The position numbers and the translations under genes are program-made. Below are positions 1,863-43,074 of a stretch of DNA of 64,000 nucleotides, one piece after another. This DNA comes from Flavobacteriales bacterium. Its GTDB lineage: Bacteria; Bacteroidota; Bacteroidia; Flavobacteriales; CAJXXR01. The stretch lies in the NCBI GenBank assembly GCA_025210805.1, contig JAOAQX010000007.1, positions 180,695-244,694 of the forward strand, in the 5' to 3' direction. The notes beneath the pieces are model-generated. The model was given only the letters and a program-made list of their open reading frames with translations, was not told the DNA's origin and made no database searches. The stretch's first letter is position 1, and each line of letters begins with the position of its first letter.

Positions 1863-2011
1863 GCTGATTATTAATTATTCAACAATGATAAGAAAAAATA
1901 TCAAACTGGTTTATTTTTTTCTTAAATCACAAATAAAACCTGTCGGTCTAGTTTTTTAATTTTCTTTTTAACAAAAATGATGATTACTTTTAAATTATTG
2001 AATATTACCGA

Positions 2012-2140
2012 GTTCTCGATACAATTTCTTTTCCGTTTCTCTCCAAATAAATCACTCGAACTGACATACTCGATACAATTTCTTGTCAATTCGAGTGGTT
2101 TTTGATGAAATGCAATGGAATCAAAAGTTGTATCGAGAAC
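2012..2140. repeat. R-family mosaic palindromic repeat, locus 1 (module A reversed + module B)
   Basis: GTTCTCGATACAATTTCTTTTCCGTTTCTCTCCAAATAAATCACTCGAACTGACA, a spacer, then TGTCAATTCGAGTGGTTTTTGATGAAATGCAATGGAATCAAAAGTTGTATCGAGAAC. Confidence 0.9.
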
Positions 2141-2188
2141 ACCCGCCACATGATTTATCCAATAAAAATGATGAGATATTTGTTATTT

Positions 2189-3075: not shown

Positions 3076-3540
3076 ATGAAAAATATTATTATTTTCTGTG
3101 CTTTTTTCACATTTATTCAAATGGGATTCTCTCAAAAACTAGAAATTAAAAATGGAGGAGTTTATACAGAAACGGGTCAAAAACTGTCTCACAAAGAAAT
3201 AAAACAGAAATTAGCCGTTTATCCTGAGGCATTAAAAAATTACAGGAGATCTAGAACCAAGGCTGTTACGGCAATTTTTTCATCTGGACTGGGTGGTGCT
3301 TGTTTTGGAATCAATATTGCACAACTTATTAAGGGTCATCAAATTACTTGGCAGGCTTCGGCAGTTGGAGCTTGGTTTATTGGTGGAGCTTTAGTTTTGG
3401 CAGGAGGTGCAAATAGAAAGGCTCGAAAAGCCATTGATCTTTACAACAGTAATCAAACGGCTTATATTCCGCCTCAAAATCAGCGTGAATTAAAACTCCA
3501 TATCACTGGAAATGGTGTTGGTTTAGCTTTTCATTTTTAA
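3076..3540 (+). CDS. hypothetical membrane protein
   Basis: 154-aa ORF with an ATG start and signal peptide ending FSQ. It has Gly/Ala-rich hydrophobic segments (SSGLGGACFGINIAQ, GAWFIGGALVLAGGA). Confidence 0.5.
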   Translation: MKNIIIFCAFFTFIQMGFSQKLEIKNGGVYTETGQKLSHKEIKQKLAVYPEALKNYRRSRTKAVTAIFSSGLGGACFGINIAQLIKGHQITWQASAVGAWFIGGALVLAGGANRKARKAIDLYNSNQTAYIPPQNQRELKLHITGNGVGLAFHF

Positions 3541-3551
3541 GGTTTTATTGG

Positions 3552-4187
3552 GTTCTCGATACAATTTTTGACTCCATTGCATTCCATCAAAAACCACTCG
3601 AACTGACATACTCGATACAGTTTTATATTCCTGTCAGTTCGAGTGATTTCTTTGGAGAGAAGCGGAAAAGAAATTGTATCGAGAACTCACTGCATTCCAT
3701 CAAAAACCACTTGAACCGACATACTCAATACAATTTTATATTCCTGTCAGTTCGAGTGATTTCTTTGGAGAGAAACGGAAAAGAAATTGTATCGAGAACT
3801 CTTTGCATTCCATAAAAAACCACTTGAACCGACATACTCAATTCAATTTTATATTCCTGTCAGTTCGAGTGATTTCTTTGGAGAGAAACGGAAAAGAAAT
3901 TGTATCGAGAACTCTCTGCACTTCATCAAAAACTACTTGAACCGATATAGTCAATACAATTTTATATTCCTGTCAGTTCGAGTGATTTCTTTGGAGAGAA
4001 ACGGAAAAGAAATTGTATCGAGAACTCTCTGCATTTCATCAAAAACCTCTCAAACTGACATAGTCAATACAATTTAATATTCCTGTCAGTTCGAGTGATT
4101 TCTTTGGAGAGAAACGGAAAAGAAATTGTATCGAGAACTCTCTGCACTTCATCAAAAACTACTTGAACTGACATGCTCAATACAATT
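3552..4187. repeat. R-family tandem array, 113-bp period, about 5.5 units
   Basis: TGTATCGAGAAC recurs at 3675, 3788, 3901, 4014 and 4127. Each unit carries 14-bp inverted arms CACTCGAACTGACA/TGTCAGTTCGAGTG. Confidence 0.95.
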
Positions 4188-5549
4188 CTAATTTGCTCTT
4201 ACAGTCAGAACTTTTAATAAACGATCGTAAGAGAGTACTTGACTATTTGATCGATGATAAAAATAGATTCTATACTGGTTACTTGCCTCAGAGAAATTCC
4301 CTTCCACGAGGTCAAAAGTTGCTTTTGCATTGGCAATATGCGGTACAAAGATATAAGCATAGTTATAATACCCTTGTTTTAATTGCATTTTCAAGCGATA
4401 GGCATTTTCGTCGGGATGATAAATCATTTTCGATTTTTCGTCTAAATTCCAATCATTTAAAGCTCCTAAAACATAGAGATCTCCTTCTAGTTTACCATAT
4501 TTAGATTCATAGGTAAAATGGACATTTGCATATTCTGCTTCCAGTTCAGAGTTCGTACTATTAAAACGGTTTATGAGATAACCACCATTAATATCTACGG
4601 CATTTCTAAAATAACCTTTGTTATTGTTCTCTCCAAGTCTGACTTTTACCTGTGCTTGGTCTTCTGTACCAGTTCTACGTATAGACTCCACCCCTAATCC
4701 AAAAGATAGGAGAGAAGTCATTTCAAAAGTTCTATATTCTGCTCCTGCTTCAAAAATATTGGTGTTTAATGCATCAAAAATCAAGCTTTCATTGCGTATA
4801 TGCCCTATTCTTGGATTAAAAATAGCATTATCCCATCGTCCATTTTGTTGAATCACTACTCGTATTTCTTCGGGCATTATATAGTGTGGGATATCTTCTG
4901 TAGAAATCTCTGCTACTACTTCGTGGTGGGTGGTTCTATACTGAGGACTTCTTGCAATATTTGCCTGCGCATTTGCTCCAATACTCAGTTCATCTTGCAC
5001 AGCAAACCGCTTGGTCAAAAGCACTCTTTCTTCATCTTCTTCAAATACTACAAGCAGATAATTTCCAGAAACTTTGGGTTTCATCATTTCATTGGGAAAA
5101 AAGAGCTCATACCGCACATAGTTTTGGGCAACTCCTTGAGAGAAATCGTAGTCTCTTATTTCAGCTTGACTAAAACCTTCTATATAATCTAATGGATCTA
5201 TTTCACTCAATTTCCAATCATATGTACAATGTAGGATTTGGTAATGGTATTGTTGATCTTCGCCAAACTCATCAAAAGTTAAGCGAATTCTGTTTTTTGA
5301 ACCTAAAGAAACCACAGGAAGCAAATTCAAATTTGGATCTGCAATGGTGGTAATACTCTTTATCGTCTGGGCTTGTAGTCCAGAATATTCTGCGGTAATT
5401 CTAGCGGTTTTTATAGCTTCATCATAGACTTTATTCTCAGCTTTTATTCCTTCCAAAAATTCGGGAATTTGAGCCTTTATTCCAAAAGGAATGAACAATA
5501 AAGAATATAAAAACAGATATTTAATCAACAATTTTTCCATATAAATCAT
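4188..5549 (-). CDS. DUF5103 / type IX secretion plug-domain-like protein
   Basis: 453-aa ORF with a signal peptide. The segment RLTFDEFGEDQQYHYQILHCTYDWKLSEIDPLDYIEGF...YELFFPN matches my recollection of the DUF5103 (T9SS_plug_1st) signature. An alternative ATG lies at 5540. Confidence 0.55.
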   Translation of the reverse strand: MIYMEKLLIKYLFLYSLLFIPFGIKAQIPEFLEGIKAENKVYDEAIKTARITAEYSGLQAQTIKSITTIADPNLNLLPVVSLGSKNRIRLTFDEFGEDQQYHYQILHCTYDWKLSEIDPLDYIEGFSQAEIRDYDFSQGVAQNYVRYELFFPNEMMKPKVSGNYLLVVFEEDEERVLLTKRFAVQDELSIGANAQANIARSPQYRTTHHEVVAEISTEDIPHYIMPEEIRVVIQQNGRWDNAIFNPRIGHIRNESLIFDALNTNIFEAGAEYRTFEMTSLLSFGLGVESIRRTGTEDQAQVKVRLGENNNKGYFRNAVDINGGYLINRFNSTNSELEAEYANVHFTYESKYGKLEGDLYVLGALNDWNLDEKSKMIYHPDENAYRLKMQLKQGYYNYAYIFVPHIANAKATFDLVEGNFSEASNQYRIYFYHRSNSQVLSYDRLLKVLTVRAN

Positions 5550-6837
5550 AAGGTTCTGCCGAGGTGATTTCTACACGAGCAAAATCACCAATTCGGATAT
5601 GGTTTTCTTCACTTACTGGAACCAAAACTTCATTATCCACCTCTGGTGAGTCATATTCTGTTCTTCCGATAAAGAAACCATCTTCTACACGATCAAACAA
5701 TACTTCAAAAACTTTGCCTACTTTTTTGATATTATTTGAATGAGAAATCCCAGCTTGCAGTTCCATAACGGCATTTGCTCGTTTTTGTTTTATTTCTTGT
5801 GGAACATCATCTTCAAAGTTAAAAGCATGGGTGTTTTCTTCATGAGAATAAGTAAATGCTCCCAATCTTTCAAATTGCATTTCTTCTACCCAATCCATCA
5901 TTTCTTGGAAATCTTCTTCGGTTTCCCCTGGATATCCTACAATAAGTGTGGTACGGATGGCTATATCTGGTATTATTGCACGAATGTCATGAATAAGTTT
6001 CGTGGTTTTTTCTCTAGTAATTCCTCGTCTCATAGCTTTTAAAACACTTGTAGAGCCATGTTGAAGAGGCATATCGAGGTAATTACATATATTTTTATGC
6101 TTTTTCATCACCTCTATAACTTCCATAGGGAAGCCTGCGGGATAAGCATAATGTAACCTAATCCAGTCTAATCCTTCAATTTTAGCCATTTGATCTAAAA
6201 GATCTGCCAATTTTCGTTCTTTGTATAGATCCAAACCATAAAATGTAAGATCTTGGGCGATAAGTAAGACTTCTTTAGTTCCGTTTTTTACTAAATTTCT
6301 TACTTGATCTAAGAGTTCTTCTATTGGGGTAGATTGGTGTTTTCCACGCATCAAAGGAATGGCACAAAAGGAACAAGGTCTATCACATCCTTCGGCTATT
6401 TTTAGATAGGCGTAGTGTGCTGGAGTGGTTAATAAGCGTTCTCCAATCAATTCTTTTTTATAATCTGCTCTCAGTGTTTTTAAGAGTTTGGGTAGGTCTT
6501 TTGTTCCGAAATACTTATCTACATCTGGTATTTCTTTTTCCAAATCATCTTTATACCGCTCAGAAAGACAACCTGTAACATAGAGTCTCTCTATTAATCC
6601 TGCTTCCTTTGCTTCCACAAATTGTAGGATAGTATTTACAGATTCTTCCTTGGCACTTTCTATAAAACCACAAGTGTTTACAATTACAATGGACGAGTCT
6701 TCAGCCTGAGATTCATGCTCTACTTCGTAGTTATTTGCTTTTAACTGGCTCATCATCACCTCAGAATCAAAAAGGTTTTTGGCACAACCAAGTGTTACCA
6801 CATTGATTTTGTTCTTCTTTAATGTTTTGGTTTTCAT
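5521..6837 (-). CDS. rimO: ribosomal protein S12 methylthiotransferase RimO
   Basis: 438 aa. It has the N-terminal UPF0004 pattern KINVVTLGCAKNLFDSE, the radical-SAM motif CDRPCSFCAIP and a C-terminal TRAM-like end. Confidence 0.93.
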   Translation of the reverse strand: MKTKTLKKNKINVVTLGCAKNLFDSEVMMSQLKANNYEVEHESQAEDSSIVIVNTCGFIESAKEESVNTILQFVEAKEAGLIERLYVTGCLSERYKDDLEKEIPDVDKYFGTKDLPKLLKTLRADYKKELIGERLLTTPAHYAYLKIAEGCDRPCSFCAIPLMRGKHQSTPIEELLDQVRNLVKNGTKEVLLIAQDLTFYGLDLYKERKLADLLDQMAKIEGLDWIRLHYAYPAGFPMEVIEVMKKHKNICNYLDMPLQHGSTSVLKAMRRGITREKTTKLIHDIRAIIPDIAIRTTLIVGYPGETEEDFQEMMDWVEEMQFERLGAFTYSHEENTHAFNFEDDVPQEIKQKRANAVMELQAGISHSNNIKKVGKVFEVLFDRVEDGFFIGRTEYDSPEVDNEVLVPVSEENHIRIGDFARVEITSAEPYDLYGKIVD

Positions 6838-6906
6838 TTAGGTTGGTTTGGTGGGGTAAAATTACGAAGGCTTTTTGGATATTCCTTTTTTTGCTGGAAA
6901 GGATTT

Positions 6907-7177
6907 GTTCTCGATAAAATTTTTGACTCCATTGCATTTCATCAAAAATCACTCGAACTGACATACTCAATATAATTTTTTTCCTGTCAGTTCGAGTGAA
7001 TTTTCTGGAGAGAAACGTAAGAAAATTTTTATCGAGAACCCACTGCATTTCATCAAAAATCACTCGAACTGACATACTCGATACAATTTTACATCTCTGT
7101 CAGTTCGAGTGATTTCTTTGGAGAGAAACGGAAAAGAAATTGTATCGAGAACCCACTACATTCCATCAAAAACCACT
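6907..7177. repeat. R-family mosaic palindromic repeat, locus 3
   Basis: It has the same modules as 3552-4187 (two A-type, two reversed B-type pieces), between the rimO start codon and the upstream gene's terminator. Confidence 0.9.
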
Positions 7178-19475: not shown

Positions 19476-19628
19476 ATCTTTACATTTTTAATACAAGTGA
19501 CAATCTTTAGACAAAATTGCCCAAAAATTGATAGATTTTCTCTCAAAAAGCACATTTTTTAATGAAATGTTCAATTTTAAACCAATTTTCACATTTAATG
19601 TCATTTATGGTATTGAATTGCATCTCTA

Positions 19629-19962
19629 TGTCAATTCGAGTGGTTTTTGATGGAATGCAATGGAGTCAAAAATTGCATCACTCTTGTCAGTTCGAGTGGT
19701 TTTTGATGGAATACAGTGGAATCAAAATTGCATCACTCTTGTCAGTTCGAGTGGTTTTTGATGGAATGCAATGGAGTCAAAAATTGTATCGAGAACAACA
19801 TACGATCGTCAAAAAAGTTCTCGATACAATTTCTTTTCCGTTTCTCTTCAAAGAAATCACTCGAACTGACAGAGAAGTAAAATAGTATCACTCTTGTCAG
19901 TTCGAGTGGTTTTTGATGGAATACAGTGGAGTCAAAAATTTTATCACTCTTGTCAGTTCGAG
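19629..19962. repeat. R-family locus 4: module-B sub-array (55-56-bp period) with one reversed module A
   Basis: TGTCA(A/G)TTCGAGTGG starts at 19629, 19685, 19740, 19895 and 19951. A reversed module A lies at 19817-19871. Confidence 0.9.
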
Positions 19963-20720
19963 TTCAACAAACACCATATAACACTCTCCAAAGTGTTAAG
20001 AACATATCCTCCAGATTGTATTTCGTTTTCAACAATAGACATTAGATTACCTGATAATATTCTATCAAACAAAATTAACTCGTTACTATTAAATTCTTGA
20101 ATTTCTGCATAATTCTTCACATTGTCAATGGCTATTTTATAAGCTTTTTCAGTATCAAATTTTAATAATTCTAAACCAAATTCTACAAACAAAAAACATG
20201 AAAAAATTGATCTAAAATGAGCGTGTGTTATCGAGGATACTTTTTTAATCATAGAATATCTTTTATTGATATCATTTTCATTTTTTAAGAAAAATATCAT
20301 TGGAAGAATTCTCATCAATGATCCATTACCGTTATTTTCTTCAAAAAAAGCCCCGCTAAATAAAGGATTTTCGCCCTTCATTACTCTCTCTATACTTTCT
20401 TTTGTGGTATTTCCAATATCAAAAACCTTATTATGGGCTCCCCAAAATCCATCGCGATACCACTTAACAAAATTCTGAGCCATATCATCTAAACAAAAAC
20501 TTTTACATAAACTTTCTGCTGTACAAAACATCATAGAAGAATCATCAGAAAACGTACCTGGTGGTTGATTCCAAGTCCCATATCCTCTATAATTAGTAAC
20601 CGGATTTTTGATAAGAGACTTTCTTGTCGAAAATTCTACAGGTACACCCAAAGCATCACCTATCGCATGTCCTAAAAAGGAAGCCATAATATCAGATTTT
20701 GACAAAATTTGATTGTTCAT
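19953..20720 (-). CDS. ADP-ribosylglycohydrolase family protein, apparently 3'-truncated (possible pseudogene)
   Basis: 255 aa with the N-terminal metal-site motif HAIGDALGVPVEF. The ORF ends at ...SGGYVLNTLESVIWCLLNSN, before the expected C-terminal GGDTDT-type motif. The last codons and the stop come from the R-family repeat. Confidence 0.6.
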   Translation of the reverse strand: MNNQILSKSDIMASFLGHAIGDALGVPVEFSTRKSLIKNPVTNYRGYGTWNQPPGTFSDDSSMMFCTAESLCKSFCLDDMAQNFVKWYRDGFWGAHNKVFDIGNTTKESIERVMKGENPLFSGAFFEENNGNGSLMRILPMIFFLKNENDINKRYSMIKKVSSITHAHFRSIFSCFLFVEFGLELLKFDTEKAYKIAIDNVKNYAEIQEFNSNELILFDRILSGNLMSIVENEIQSGGYVLNTLESVIWCLLNSN

Positions 20721-23830: not shown

Positions 23831-24383
23831 ATAACTCTCGTTATAATTAAAAACAGAGTTTTATATTGCCAATAGTTTCTATTATTAAAACTCTCCTACT
23901 GGATATTCTCTCCAAAACAAAACCCTCCCGAAAAGTTAGGACAAGCTCTGTAATTCAAATCCCTCCCGAATAGTCGGGACAAGCTATTTGAAGGGGGTAA
24001 GGGGGATGTTGCATCTTGTTTCATTATCGAATAGCATTTTTTAGTTTCTTTTTATAGGTGGTATTTACTTTGTGTAACATCCCCCTTCCCCCCTTCAAAG
24101 GGGGATTATGATATTCAGTAAATTAACACCACGAAAGCTATAACTTATATTATAATCAAAAACAGAGTTTTATATAGCCAATAGTTTCTTTCTATAGGTG
24201 TTTACTTTGTGTAACATCCCCCTTACCCCCTTCAAAGGGGGATTATGATATTCAGCAAATTAACACCATAAAGGCTATAACTTATATTATAATCAAAAAC
24301 AGAGTTTTATGAAGCCAATAGTTTCTATTATTAAAGCTCTCCTAATGGACATTTTCTCCAAAACAAAACCCTCCCGAAAAGTC
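23831..24383. repeat. S-family composite repeat, locus 2 (nested / partly tandem, about 140-bp period)
   Basis: Inverted repeats at 23988-24014 and 24073-24098, with an extra right end at 24210-24235. Hairpin modules at 23921, 23961 and 24368. The anchor TAGTTTCT recurs at 23873, 24042, 24182 and 24319. Confidence 0.85.
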
Positions 24384-26751: not shown

Positions 26752-26978
26752 GACAAAAGCCCCAGTTTTTCAACTTGAACAATTGAATCAATATATATTA
26801 GTTATAGACCTTTTTCTTTTTTATAAATACTAAAAACTATTATATATAATATATCCGTTGATAAGTCATTATTTAAATTCTTTGTTATTTAGTTTATCAT
26901 TTGTTATGAACAAAATTAACAGACTTATCAACGTATTATTTAGCTAATAATAATCAATTTAATGCTTTTATTCACAAC

Positions 26979-27073
26979 TGTGGATAAGTACTATCAACAG
27001 TCTTTTGTGGATAAATTTCTAGTGTATAAACCTGAGGATAACCCCTATTTTCTGTGGGTAATCCTGTGGATTA
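26979..27073. promoter_or_regulatory. cluster of five co-oriented DnaA boxes
   Basis: TGTGGATAA at 26979 and 27006 (both perfect), TGAGGATAA at 27033, TGTGGGTAA at 27053 and TGTGGATTA at 27065. Confidence 0.7.
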
Positions 27074-27470
27074 TTTTTGAAAGGTTGATGAAGGTTTTTT
27101 GAGGATTTTTTTTCATTAAGAAATCTAAATGAAAATATCAAGAGCTAATTTTAAAAACTTGTAAACGTGCTACTAAATTTAATTAACAAAAAATGTTGAA
27201 AAGTCGTTAATGATTTTCAGTTTATTAAGAACAGATATCAACAGACTTGTTGATAAGTATAAATGTAGAATTAGATATTTTTTATACAATGTAAAAATCT
27301 AATTTACAATTAAATAAAACATTACCCTAAGATTAAGTGTTTGTAAATCAATCATGGTGATAAATAGCTAATTGAAGAACGATTTAAGCGTGTTTTTTAA
27401 ATGTATTATAATAAAAAATATAGGATGGCTATTTTTACCAAAAGAATTCCCGAAAACCATTTCTGCATAG

Positions 27471-42745: not shown

Positions 42746-42818
42746 TGGCCTATGGTGTAACTGGCAACACATCTGATTTTGGTTCAGAAGAGTCTAGGTT
42801 CGAGCCCTAGTAGGCCAA
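42746..42818 (+). tRNA. tRNA-Gln (anticodon UUG), copy 1
   Basis: Hand-folded cloverleaf. Acceptor TGGCCTA/TAGGCCA, D-arm GTGT-AACTGGCA-ACAC, anticodon stem TCTGA/TCAGA with loop TTTTGGT, and T-arm CTAGG-TTCGAGC-CCTAG. Confidence 0.88.
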
Positions 42819-42828
42819 CTAATTGCAA

Positions 42829-42901
42829 TGGCCTATGGTGTAACTGGCAACACATCTGATTTTGGTTCAGAAGAGTCTAGGTTCGAGCCCTAGTAGGCCA
42901 A
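42829..42901 (+). tRNA. tRNA-Gln (anticodon UUG), copy 2 (identical tandem duplicate)
   Basis: The 73-nt sequence is identical to copy 1 and lies 83 bp downstream. Confidence 0.88.
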
Positions 42902-42992: not shown

Positions 42993-43074
42993 GCGGCTGT
43001 GGTGGAATTGGTAGACACGCTAGACTTAGGATCTAGTGCCGCAAGGCGTGGGGGTTCGACTCCCTTCAGCCGCA
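42993..43074 (+). tRNA. tRNA-Leu (anticodon UAG)
   Basis: Hand-folded cloverleaf. Acceptor GCGGCTG/CAGCCGC, anticodon stem CTAGA/TCTAG with loop CTTAGGA, a long variable arm (GTGCCGCAAGGCGT) and T-arm GGGGG-TTCGACT-CCCTT. Confidence 0.88.

Follow-up and report, generated by a model that had tools for sequence, protein, structure and literature searches.

Proteobacterial repetitive extragenic palindromes (REPs) and bacterial interspersed mosaic elements (BIMEs) carry a GTAG tag, and their enzyme is RAYT, of the HUH/Y1 type. Palindromes with a CGTC (often TGTC) tag have been classified in five phyla, Bacteroidetes among them, where they have no dedicated transposase and are unlinked to RAYT genes (Di Nocera et al. 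2013, PMC3733652). Site-specific nucleases of single-stranded DNA (ssDNA) were described only in 2025, in Neisseria and a few relatives: SsnA of N. meningitidis, a single-domain GIY-YIG protein of 94 amino acids (aa), acts on ssDNA only, which it binds and cuts a few nucleotides 5' of a hairpin repeat called NTS, CGTCATTCCCGCGMAVGCGGGAATCYRG, and does not bind RNA, and ssnA homologues are typically flanked by repeats in the layout NTS-ssnA-NTS (Chenal et al. 2025, PMC11893778). Bacteroidota go unmentioned in its main text. Here we analyse a 64-kb stretch of DNA (the window) from a deep-branching Flavobacteriales metagenome-assembled genome (MAG) that has no close relatives in the collections searched, and within it a 113-bp tandem array at positions 3552-4187. 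This array is probably a BIME-like cluster of ~55-nt repeats that fold as ssDNA and occur across the Bacteroidota, a long variant of the CGTC/TGTC-tagged REPs and Ssn-associated repeats with a GIY-YIG nuclease of ~96 aa as its cognate enzyme. While the logic shared with the Ssn/SRM system and with CGTC-tagged REPs is already known, the two-helix unit, about twice as long, the other nuclease subfamily and a phylum outside the Ssn main text are new here.

Our sample of the repeat comes from a genome scan with a two-box pattern, which listed at least 120 loci; locus-based counts throughout are among those listed. A motif-based scan of these loci recovered 320 units, 288 of them unique, and a covariance model, R1, gave 293 matches in 100 of the loci. 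The unit is ~55 nt long (53-59 nt) and runs from a TGTCA tag through a helix, P1, and a variable, covarying hairpin, P2, to TGTATCGAGAAC; its consensus reads TGTCA(G/C)TTCGAGTG, then a hairpin whose stem is genome-specific but paired, then (AT)TGTATCGAGAA(C/G). P1 is formed by GTTCGAG and CGAGAAC (more generally (G/C)TTCGAG with CGAGAA(C/G)) and contains in mid-helix an invariant tandem G·A/A·G, in a 5'-CGAG-3' context, that is predicted to be sheared. Beyond P1 lie a 3-nt bulge, two invariant wobble pairs (U·G/G·U) and the variable helix P2. The 5' tag is unpaired, and reads TGTCA in 289 of the 320 units and CGTCA in 8, in keeping with the oriented HGTCW tag of NTS-like repeats.

Covariation supports this fold from the closing pair inwards. 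Among the 288 unique units, the pair that closes P1, between base 6 of the 5' box and the last base of the 3' box, is G-C in 186 and C-G in 79, the remainder being U-A or A-U (5) or non-pairs (about 18), and the pair next to it occurs in A-U, G-C and C-G variants. In a gapless alignment of 29 sequences, 96.1% of cells are paired, compared with 82% in shuffles and at most 58% in slid-register controls, and 9 of the 14 pairs have changed on both sides. The 150 best model-aligned matches reach 98.6% against 86% (slid controls, at most 61%), in an alignment that, having been fitted to the model, is biased in its favour. The fold also has a strand. The G·A, U·G and G·U pairs would become C·T or A·C in the complement and, as this predicts, the tag-bearing strand is the more stably folded of the two in 276 of 287 units.

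The array is built from these units. Tandem Repeats Finder places it at 3578-4187 with a period of 113, 5.4 copies, 93% matches, 0% indels and a score of 1038, in agreement with the exact 113-bp period given in a preliminary description that had been made from the letters of the window alone. Its parts and its two flanking genes are as follows:

3076-3540, plus strand: upstream flanking open reading frame (ORF) of 154 aa, its stop codon 11 nt ahead of the array
3552-3608, minus strand: intact 57-nt unit with hairpin variant A (R1 59.1 bits, E = 2.3e-11), read on the minus strand as TGTCAGTTCGAGTG-GTTTTTGATGGAATGCAATGGAGTCAAAA-ATTGTATCGAGAAC
3609-3631, no strand: 23-nt spacer between head-to-head units, holding a 3'-box-like fragment, CTCGATACA
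3632-3686, plus strand: intact 55-nt unit with hairpin variant B (R1 64.4 bits)
3687-3744, minus strand: truncated partner (half of hairpin A and a degenerate 5' box, CACTTGAACCGACA), then the 23-nt spacer
3745-3799, plus strand: intact 55-nt unit, variant B (R1 65.3 bits), identical to the following three units
3800-3857, 3913-3970 and 4026-4083: further copies of the truncated partner and spacer
3858-3912, plus strand: intact 55-nt unit, variant B (R1 65.3 bits)
3971-4025, plus strand: intact 55-nt unit, variant B (R1 65.3 bits)
4084-4138, plus strand: intact 55-nt unit, variant B (R1 65.3 bits)
4139-4190, minus strand: last, partial copy of partner and spacer, entering the TAG stop codon (4188-4190) of the downstream gene
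4188-5549, minus strand: downstream convergent gene for a type IX secretion system (T9SS) plug protein, DUF5103 (PF17116)

Each 113-bp repeat consists of an intact plus-strand unit (55 nt), a truncated inverted partner (35 nt) that has lost its 3' box and half of its hairpin, and a spacer (23 nt). The five intact plus-strand units are identical apart from one loop base, and only 1 column in 55 varies within the intact unit, compared with 16 in 58 elsewhere in the repeat (Fisher p = 1e-4), a distribution at odds with the initial impression of substitutions scattered over the whole repeat. That the intact unit is near-invariant while the remainder has diverged implies that the unit is kept or homogenised in this genome. 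With six full units, the array is among the largest of 161 clusters (full units re-clustered with a wider gap), and it is unusual in having a direct arrangement instead of an alternating one.

The anchor reported to recur at 113-bp steps does so: the 14-mer ATTGTATCGAGAAC lies on the plus strand at 3673, 3786, 3899, 4012 and 4125, and its reverse complement at 3552. Window-wide, and with both strands counted, ATTGTATCGAGAAC has 15 matches where 0.52 are expected, and TGTCAGTTCGAGTG with its complement has 22 where 0.17 are expected. The nested inverted repeats that had been assigned to every unit are there in part. The 14-bp arms (CACTCGAACTGACA at 3595-3608 and TGTCAGTTCGAGTG at 3632-3645, with a loop of 23 nt) and a ATTTCTTT/AAAGAAAT stem exist, but the perfect 14-bp inverted repeat is limited to the first copy, and its left arm has 2-3 mismatches in later ones. 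A proposed pairing of termini between units is impossible in general, since GTTCTCGATACAAT is present in the array only once, at 3552. Significant structure is limited to the first doublet, a complete head-to-head pair of 135 nt at 3552-3686 with a predicted four-way fold (-30.6 kcal/mol, z = -7.0), and is lacking in the 113-nt repeat by itself (z = -0.3 and -0.8). A loop like the spacer at 3609-3631 is also found at 2067-2083 and 7075-7097. As had been noted, the array occupies the whole of the convergent gap between 3076-3540 and 4188-5549. We considered whether it had altered the C-terminus of the T9SS plug protein, whose nearest homologues in the collections are 47-48% identical, and rejected this, the C-terminal length being normal by comparison with homologues.

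Beyond this genome, the unit is found in at least 16 genera of Flavobacteriia, including Tenacibaculum, Maribacter, Chishuiella, Leeuwenhoekiella, Zunongwangia, Winogradskyella, Polaribacter and Psychroflexus, and in MAGs labelled Vicingaceae, Crocinitomix, Sphingobacteriaceae and Chitinophagaceae; units at two further loci (L068 and L094), in MAGs that bear the labels Candidatus Dojkabacteria and Hydrocarboniphaga, likely belong to mis-binned Bacteroidota contigs. The two-box pattern has no match in viral contigs, and the exact 55-mer of this genome is absent from the metagenome contigs searched. The 184 motif-based clusters include 35 singles, about 54 tail-to-tail doublets, 15 head-to-head doublets and alternating arrays, the longest of ten units. 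There are two unit types, G..C and C..G, which as a rule follow each other in inverted orientation, much as Y and Z REPs do in BIMEs. The suggestion of a non-autonomous repeat, one of several made in the preliminary description, therefore named the right class: the family is REP/BIME-like, occurring as singles, inverted doublets and arrays. In an orthologous gap of five Maribacter species (L019, L020, L044, L083 and L119) the number of doublets differs between species (1, 2 or at least 3), and in some of the units P2 and the 3' box are separated by an insertion of extra sequence; no clean empty site was seen at these loci.

When all ORFs of the 120 listed loci were clustered, the top recurrent family proved to be a protein of ~96 aa with GIY-YIG as its sole domain (Pfam PF01541, E = 1.8e-17). 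Its gene is present in 23 copies at 22 of these 120 repeat-selected loci, in every case with long units no more than 500 nt away. Of the 24 gene copies obtained from the clustered ORFs and the protein-selected loci together, 20 are bordered on each side by a unit no further than 200 nt away, and the stop codon of the gene often lies 0-11 nt from, or overlaps, the next unit. The association holds in the reciprocal direction: four genes selected solely for the similarity of their proteins (from Aestuariivivens, Hyunsoonleella, Mesoflavibacter and Hwangdonia) are all embedded in units. With gonococcal SsnA the Bacteroidota protein shares 39% identity (E = 4e-13). Its closest homologue outside the Bacteroidota, in Methylobacterium bullatum (45% identity; L131, 1090-1630), is flanked by unrelated palindromes, GGCACCTCAGGATGAGGTG…, which suggests that the association with repeats extends across this GIY-YIG subfamily.

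The Bacteroidota also contain a second such pairing. At the gonococcal ssnA locus (L130), the gene lies inside an alternating array of eight NTS copies, all of which are recovered by the published SRM pattern, HGTCWYN(0-2)YYVSBRHN(0-5)WNVSBRGN(0-2)RNCYNB. In Tenacibaculum adriaticum (L061, 380-1300), short canonical CGTCATT.CGAG repeats, CGTCATTACGAGG...GTAATC, flank the gene of a closer SsnA homologue (44% identity, E = 2e-27). This short CGTC family, CGTCATT[AG]CGAGG…GCAATC, recurs at L010, L013, L016, L045 and L082, often interleaved with long units in arrays; short repeats are present in 43 of 121 sources, and none is in the window. Two nuclease subfamilies with two repeat types in one phylum point to cognate nuclease-repeat pairs. 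Short and long repeats are bridged by short-loop intermediates such as TGTCATTTCGAGCGTAGTCGAGAAGC and by same-P1 forms, TGTCATTTCGAG-CGTAGT-CGAGAAG, which are found at the loci of the long units. In view of these, the long unit is most readily understood as a tagged palindrome whose loop holds an additional helix, and as having a nuclease subfamily of its own.

Like the Ssn/NTS system, the long-unit family combines a single-domain GIY-YIG gene of ~95 aa with a multi-copy hairpin repeat on both sides; the repeats share an unpaired 5' YGTCA tag, a palindrome, an oriented, non-palindromic design and alternating clusters, and recognition would be expected on one strand only. By contrast with NTS, which measures about 28 nt, the long unit spans 53-59 nt and has a second, freely covarying loop helix, a tandem G·A in P1 and a 3-nt bulge. 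The family resembles REPs and BIMEs in its two alternating unit types, its enrichment at 3' gene ends, a gene flanked by its own repeats and presumed single-stranded recognition, but it differs in tag (TGTCA rather than GTAG) and in enzyme (GIY-YIG rather than HUH/Y1). With IS200/IS605 elements it shares sub-terminal imperfect hairpins read on one strand and the absence of target duplications, while lacking TnpA and TnpB as well as distinct left and right ends, and being instead a single module of symmetric use. Finally, it has in common with CGTC-tagged REPs the terminal CGTC/TGTC tag, a high copy number, a mostly intergenic location, an occurrence as singles, head-to-head dimers and clusters, and no link to Y1 enzymes; those REPs, however, are 20-40 bp long with stems of 8-9 bp, loops of 4-5 nt and a CCA-like tail (PMC3733652), whereas the long unit is about twice that size, with two helices. 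Tail-to-tail dimers, rare in the same survey, are common among the long units, which also have a candidate partner gene.

The preliminary description recognised no known repeat family here. This holds for the exact sequences, as the boxes were not found in the searchable literature (a search that cannot prove that no description exists) and the literature on RAYT, on GIY-YIG proteins with Flavobacteria and on UPF0213/YhbQ yielded nothing on the long-unit family; it does not hold at a higher level, since the repeat probably belongs, as a longer variant, with the CGTC/TGTC-tagged REP superfamily and Ssn-related repeats.

By analogy with SsnA and NTS in Neisseria, we suggest that a nuclease presumably encoded in this genome would bind the folded unit on ssDNA only, as exposed in replication, transformation or conjugation, and would introduce a nick a few nucleotides 5' of TGTCA. 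The units, present in many copies, might then be spread, homogenised and expanded through repair and recombination among them. At 3552-4187, a head-to-head doublet may have lost part of one partner, after which the 113-bp composite would have been amplified in tandem, leaving five putatively cleavage-competent units on the plus strand and one on the minus strand.

Several observations weigh against reading the array as a cluster of nuclease-recognised ssDNA repeats. The SRM pattern overlaps 0 of the 320 units, with 3 matches in 0.98 Mb; the folding energy of single units barely beats that of shuffles (z = -1 to -1.9); and a bias towards one replication strand is weak (24 versus 12, p = 0.065), the window's own units not fitting it. 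No GIY-YIG gene is present in the 64-kb window or in the 5.8 kb beyond it. Elsewhere, the gene is found in two kinds of spacer (S/S 9, T/T 7), and so has no single fixed element architecture. The nuclease scores 58-62 bits against UPF0213 structures (1ZG2 and 1YWL) and 39-46 bits against SsnA, and it also scores higher against the Methylobacterium homologue than against SsnA; with UPF0213 scores slightly above those for SsnA, its membership in the characterised Ssn clade (cd10448) is unproven.

We can go one step further, with considerably less assurance. The long unit and the UPF0213-like GIY-YIG gene might together constitute a self-propagating mobile element, in which the nuclease takes the role of RAYT and gene-less doublets and arrays are non-autonomous progeny. 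We hold this extension as tentative. If true, it would answer the question, dating from 2013, of what mobilises CGTC/TGTC-tagged palindromes, and would define a second, biochemically distinct class of Ssn-like enzyme that reads a two-helix ssDNA fold.

The presence of the gene in two kinds of spacer also fits an alternative in which a free-standing homing endonuclease, encoded by the GIY-YIG gene, uses the repeat only as a landing site, the repeats having arisen, spread and functioned independently. Its position, always between direct copies of a doublet that could serve as homology arms, is consistent with this, as is the fact that most clusters, including all those in the window, are gene-less. 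We nevertheless think homing unlikely. Within one phylum, each of two nuclease subfamilies is paired with a repeat type of its own, SsnA recognises its flanking repeat as a substrate (PMC11893778), and across at least 16 genera the boxes are conserved but the stem of P2 varies freely, which argues for a conserved protein reader.

Whether the units act as DNA or as RNA bears on a further alternative, that they are structured RNAs (3'-untranslated-region stabilisers, terminators or small RNAs) and the array a string of RNA modules. The covariation is compatible with G·U pairing, U·G/G·U pairs are among the invariant positions, and with RNA parameters the units fold more strongly (-11.1 kcal/mol, against -7.2 for the complement). 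Clusters also favour tandem (85) and convergent (27) gaps over divergent ones (11), so that the family is depleted from gaps that contain promoters. Single units, however, show no orientation bias relative to neighbouring genes (14 same and 15 opposite; 8 versus 7), which points to action at the level of DNA rather than mRNA. A terminator scan found no terminator-like site within the array, contrary to a role proposed for it at the outset. The suggested RNA element finds no counterpart in Rfam either, where only tRNAs reach the gathering threshold across the window, and where a scan of 3400-4300 at E values up to 10 returned as its best hits spurious plant miRNA models far below threshold. Since, in addition, the 113-nt repeat is not significantly structured and SsnA does not bind RNA (PMC11893778), we regard an RNA function as improbable.

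The family occurs singly, in inverted doublets that combine two unit types and in alternating arrays, and has an unpaired 5' tag, a habit like that of a proteobacterial REP/BIME family mobilised by a RAYT (Y1/HUH) transposase, the partner that had been suggested for this array. The tag, however, is TGTC/CGTC and not GTAG, and the recurrent neighbour is the single-domain GIY-YIG gene. We found no IS200-like ORF in ~1 Mb of flanks or in the window, using as query an IS200 TnpA sequence with which very distant RAYTs could be missed. With CGTC-tagged REPs themselves unlinked to RAYT genes (PMC3733652), there is very little to recommend mobilisation of this kind.

We give equally little credence to a classical miniature inverted-repeat transposable element, moved by a DDE enzyme and then locally duplicated, in spite of the perfect 14-bp terminal inverted repeats of the 135-nt doublet. 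Across 153 elements, flank identity equals the shuffled expectation, with no target-site duplication above chance; half-elements, the single units, are second only to doublets in frequency; folding is strand-asymmetric; and no transposase is recurrent among the clustered ORFs of the 120 listed loci. Least probable of all is a collapsed or expanded assembly artefact, which a metagenomic source and an independent short-read contig that breaks at the repeats (Logan SRR21418661, L001, 100% identical to window positions 4139-6935 with both ends within repeat copies) might suggest, but against which stand array copies that differ from one another, at 17 columns in a consistent register without indels, and the common occurrence of arrays of 4-10 units in the family's isolate genomes and complete genomes.

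Favouring, then, a BIME-like cluster of nuclease-associated repeats, we turn to the remainder of the window, which holds 13 full units at four loci in total. Besides the array at 3552-4187, these are:

2012-2140: head-to-head doublet of units 2012-2066 (minus strand) and 2084-2140 (plus strand), with R1 scores of 63.5 and 48.6 bits
6907-7177: second array of period 113, 2.2 copies, with units 6907-6963 (minus strand), 6985-7039 (plus strand) and 7098-7152 (plus strand)
19616-20003: third cluster, with full units 19740-19796 (plus strand) and 19817-19871 (minus strand), and partial units in a 55-bp head-to-tail sub-array at 19629-19736 and at 19895-19947 and 19951-20003

The junction between the 3' box and the truncated partner is the same in the array at 6907-7177 as in that at 3552-4187, so the composite was apparently copied between loci, beyond local duplication. 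Repeats also intrude on gene prediction. The final three codons and TGA stop (…LLNSN*) of the minus-strand ORF 19953-20720 (255 aa) are the reverse complement of a 5' box, CTCGAACTGACA, at 19951-19964, and the repeat thus appears to supply the end of this gene. Four ORFs of 75-107 aa, at 1922-2149 (minus strand) and at 3674-3940, 3787-4077 and 19562-19885 (plus strand), consist mostly of repeat units and are almost certainly spurious; the 75-aa one among such repeat-derived ORFs is annotated as a gene in the source annotation (L132, 13392-13619). In practical terms, units of this family break short-read assemblies, create spurious ORFs and can supply the stop codons of genes, and none is annotated by Rfam.

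Other features of the window are separate from the repeats. GC skew flips at about 26.8-28 kb, from about -0.08 to -0.14 before to +0.15 after, and gene orientation changes from minus to plus at the divergent gap 26791-27401, with no dnaA seen nearby; the switch in skew could mark a replication origin or terminus. A pair of identical tRNA genes stands in tandem at 42746-42818 and 42829-42901 (83 bp apart), followed by a third tRNA gene at 42993-43074. An unrelated 137-bp tandem repeat at 24042-24326 (2.1 copies, 92% matches) contains a CCCCCTT…AAGGGGG palindrome.

The long-unit family would add a widespread, marine-dominated Bacteroidota branch to the site-specific ssDNA nucleases. Its larger, two-helix recognition element, together with a different nuclease subfamily, may offer new specificities for ssDNA tools. 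For the Flavobacteriia themselves, the family would provide a test case for how tagged palindromes spread and how they influence recombination or transformation.

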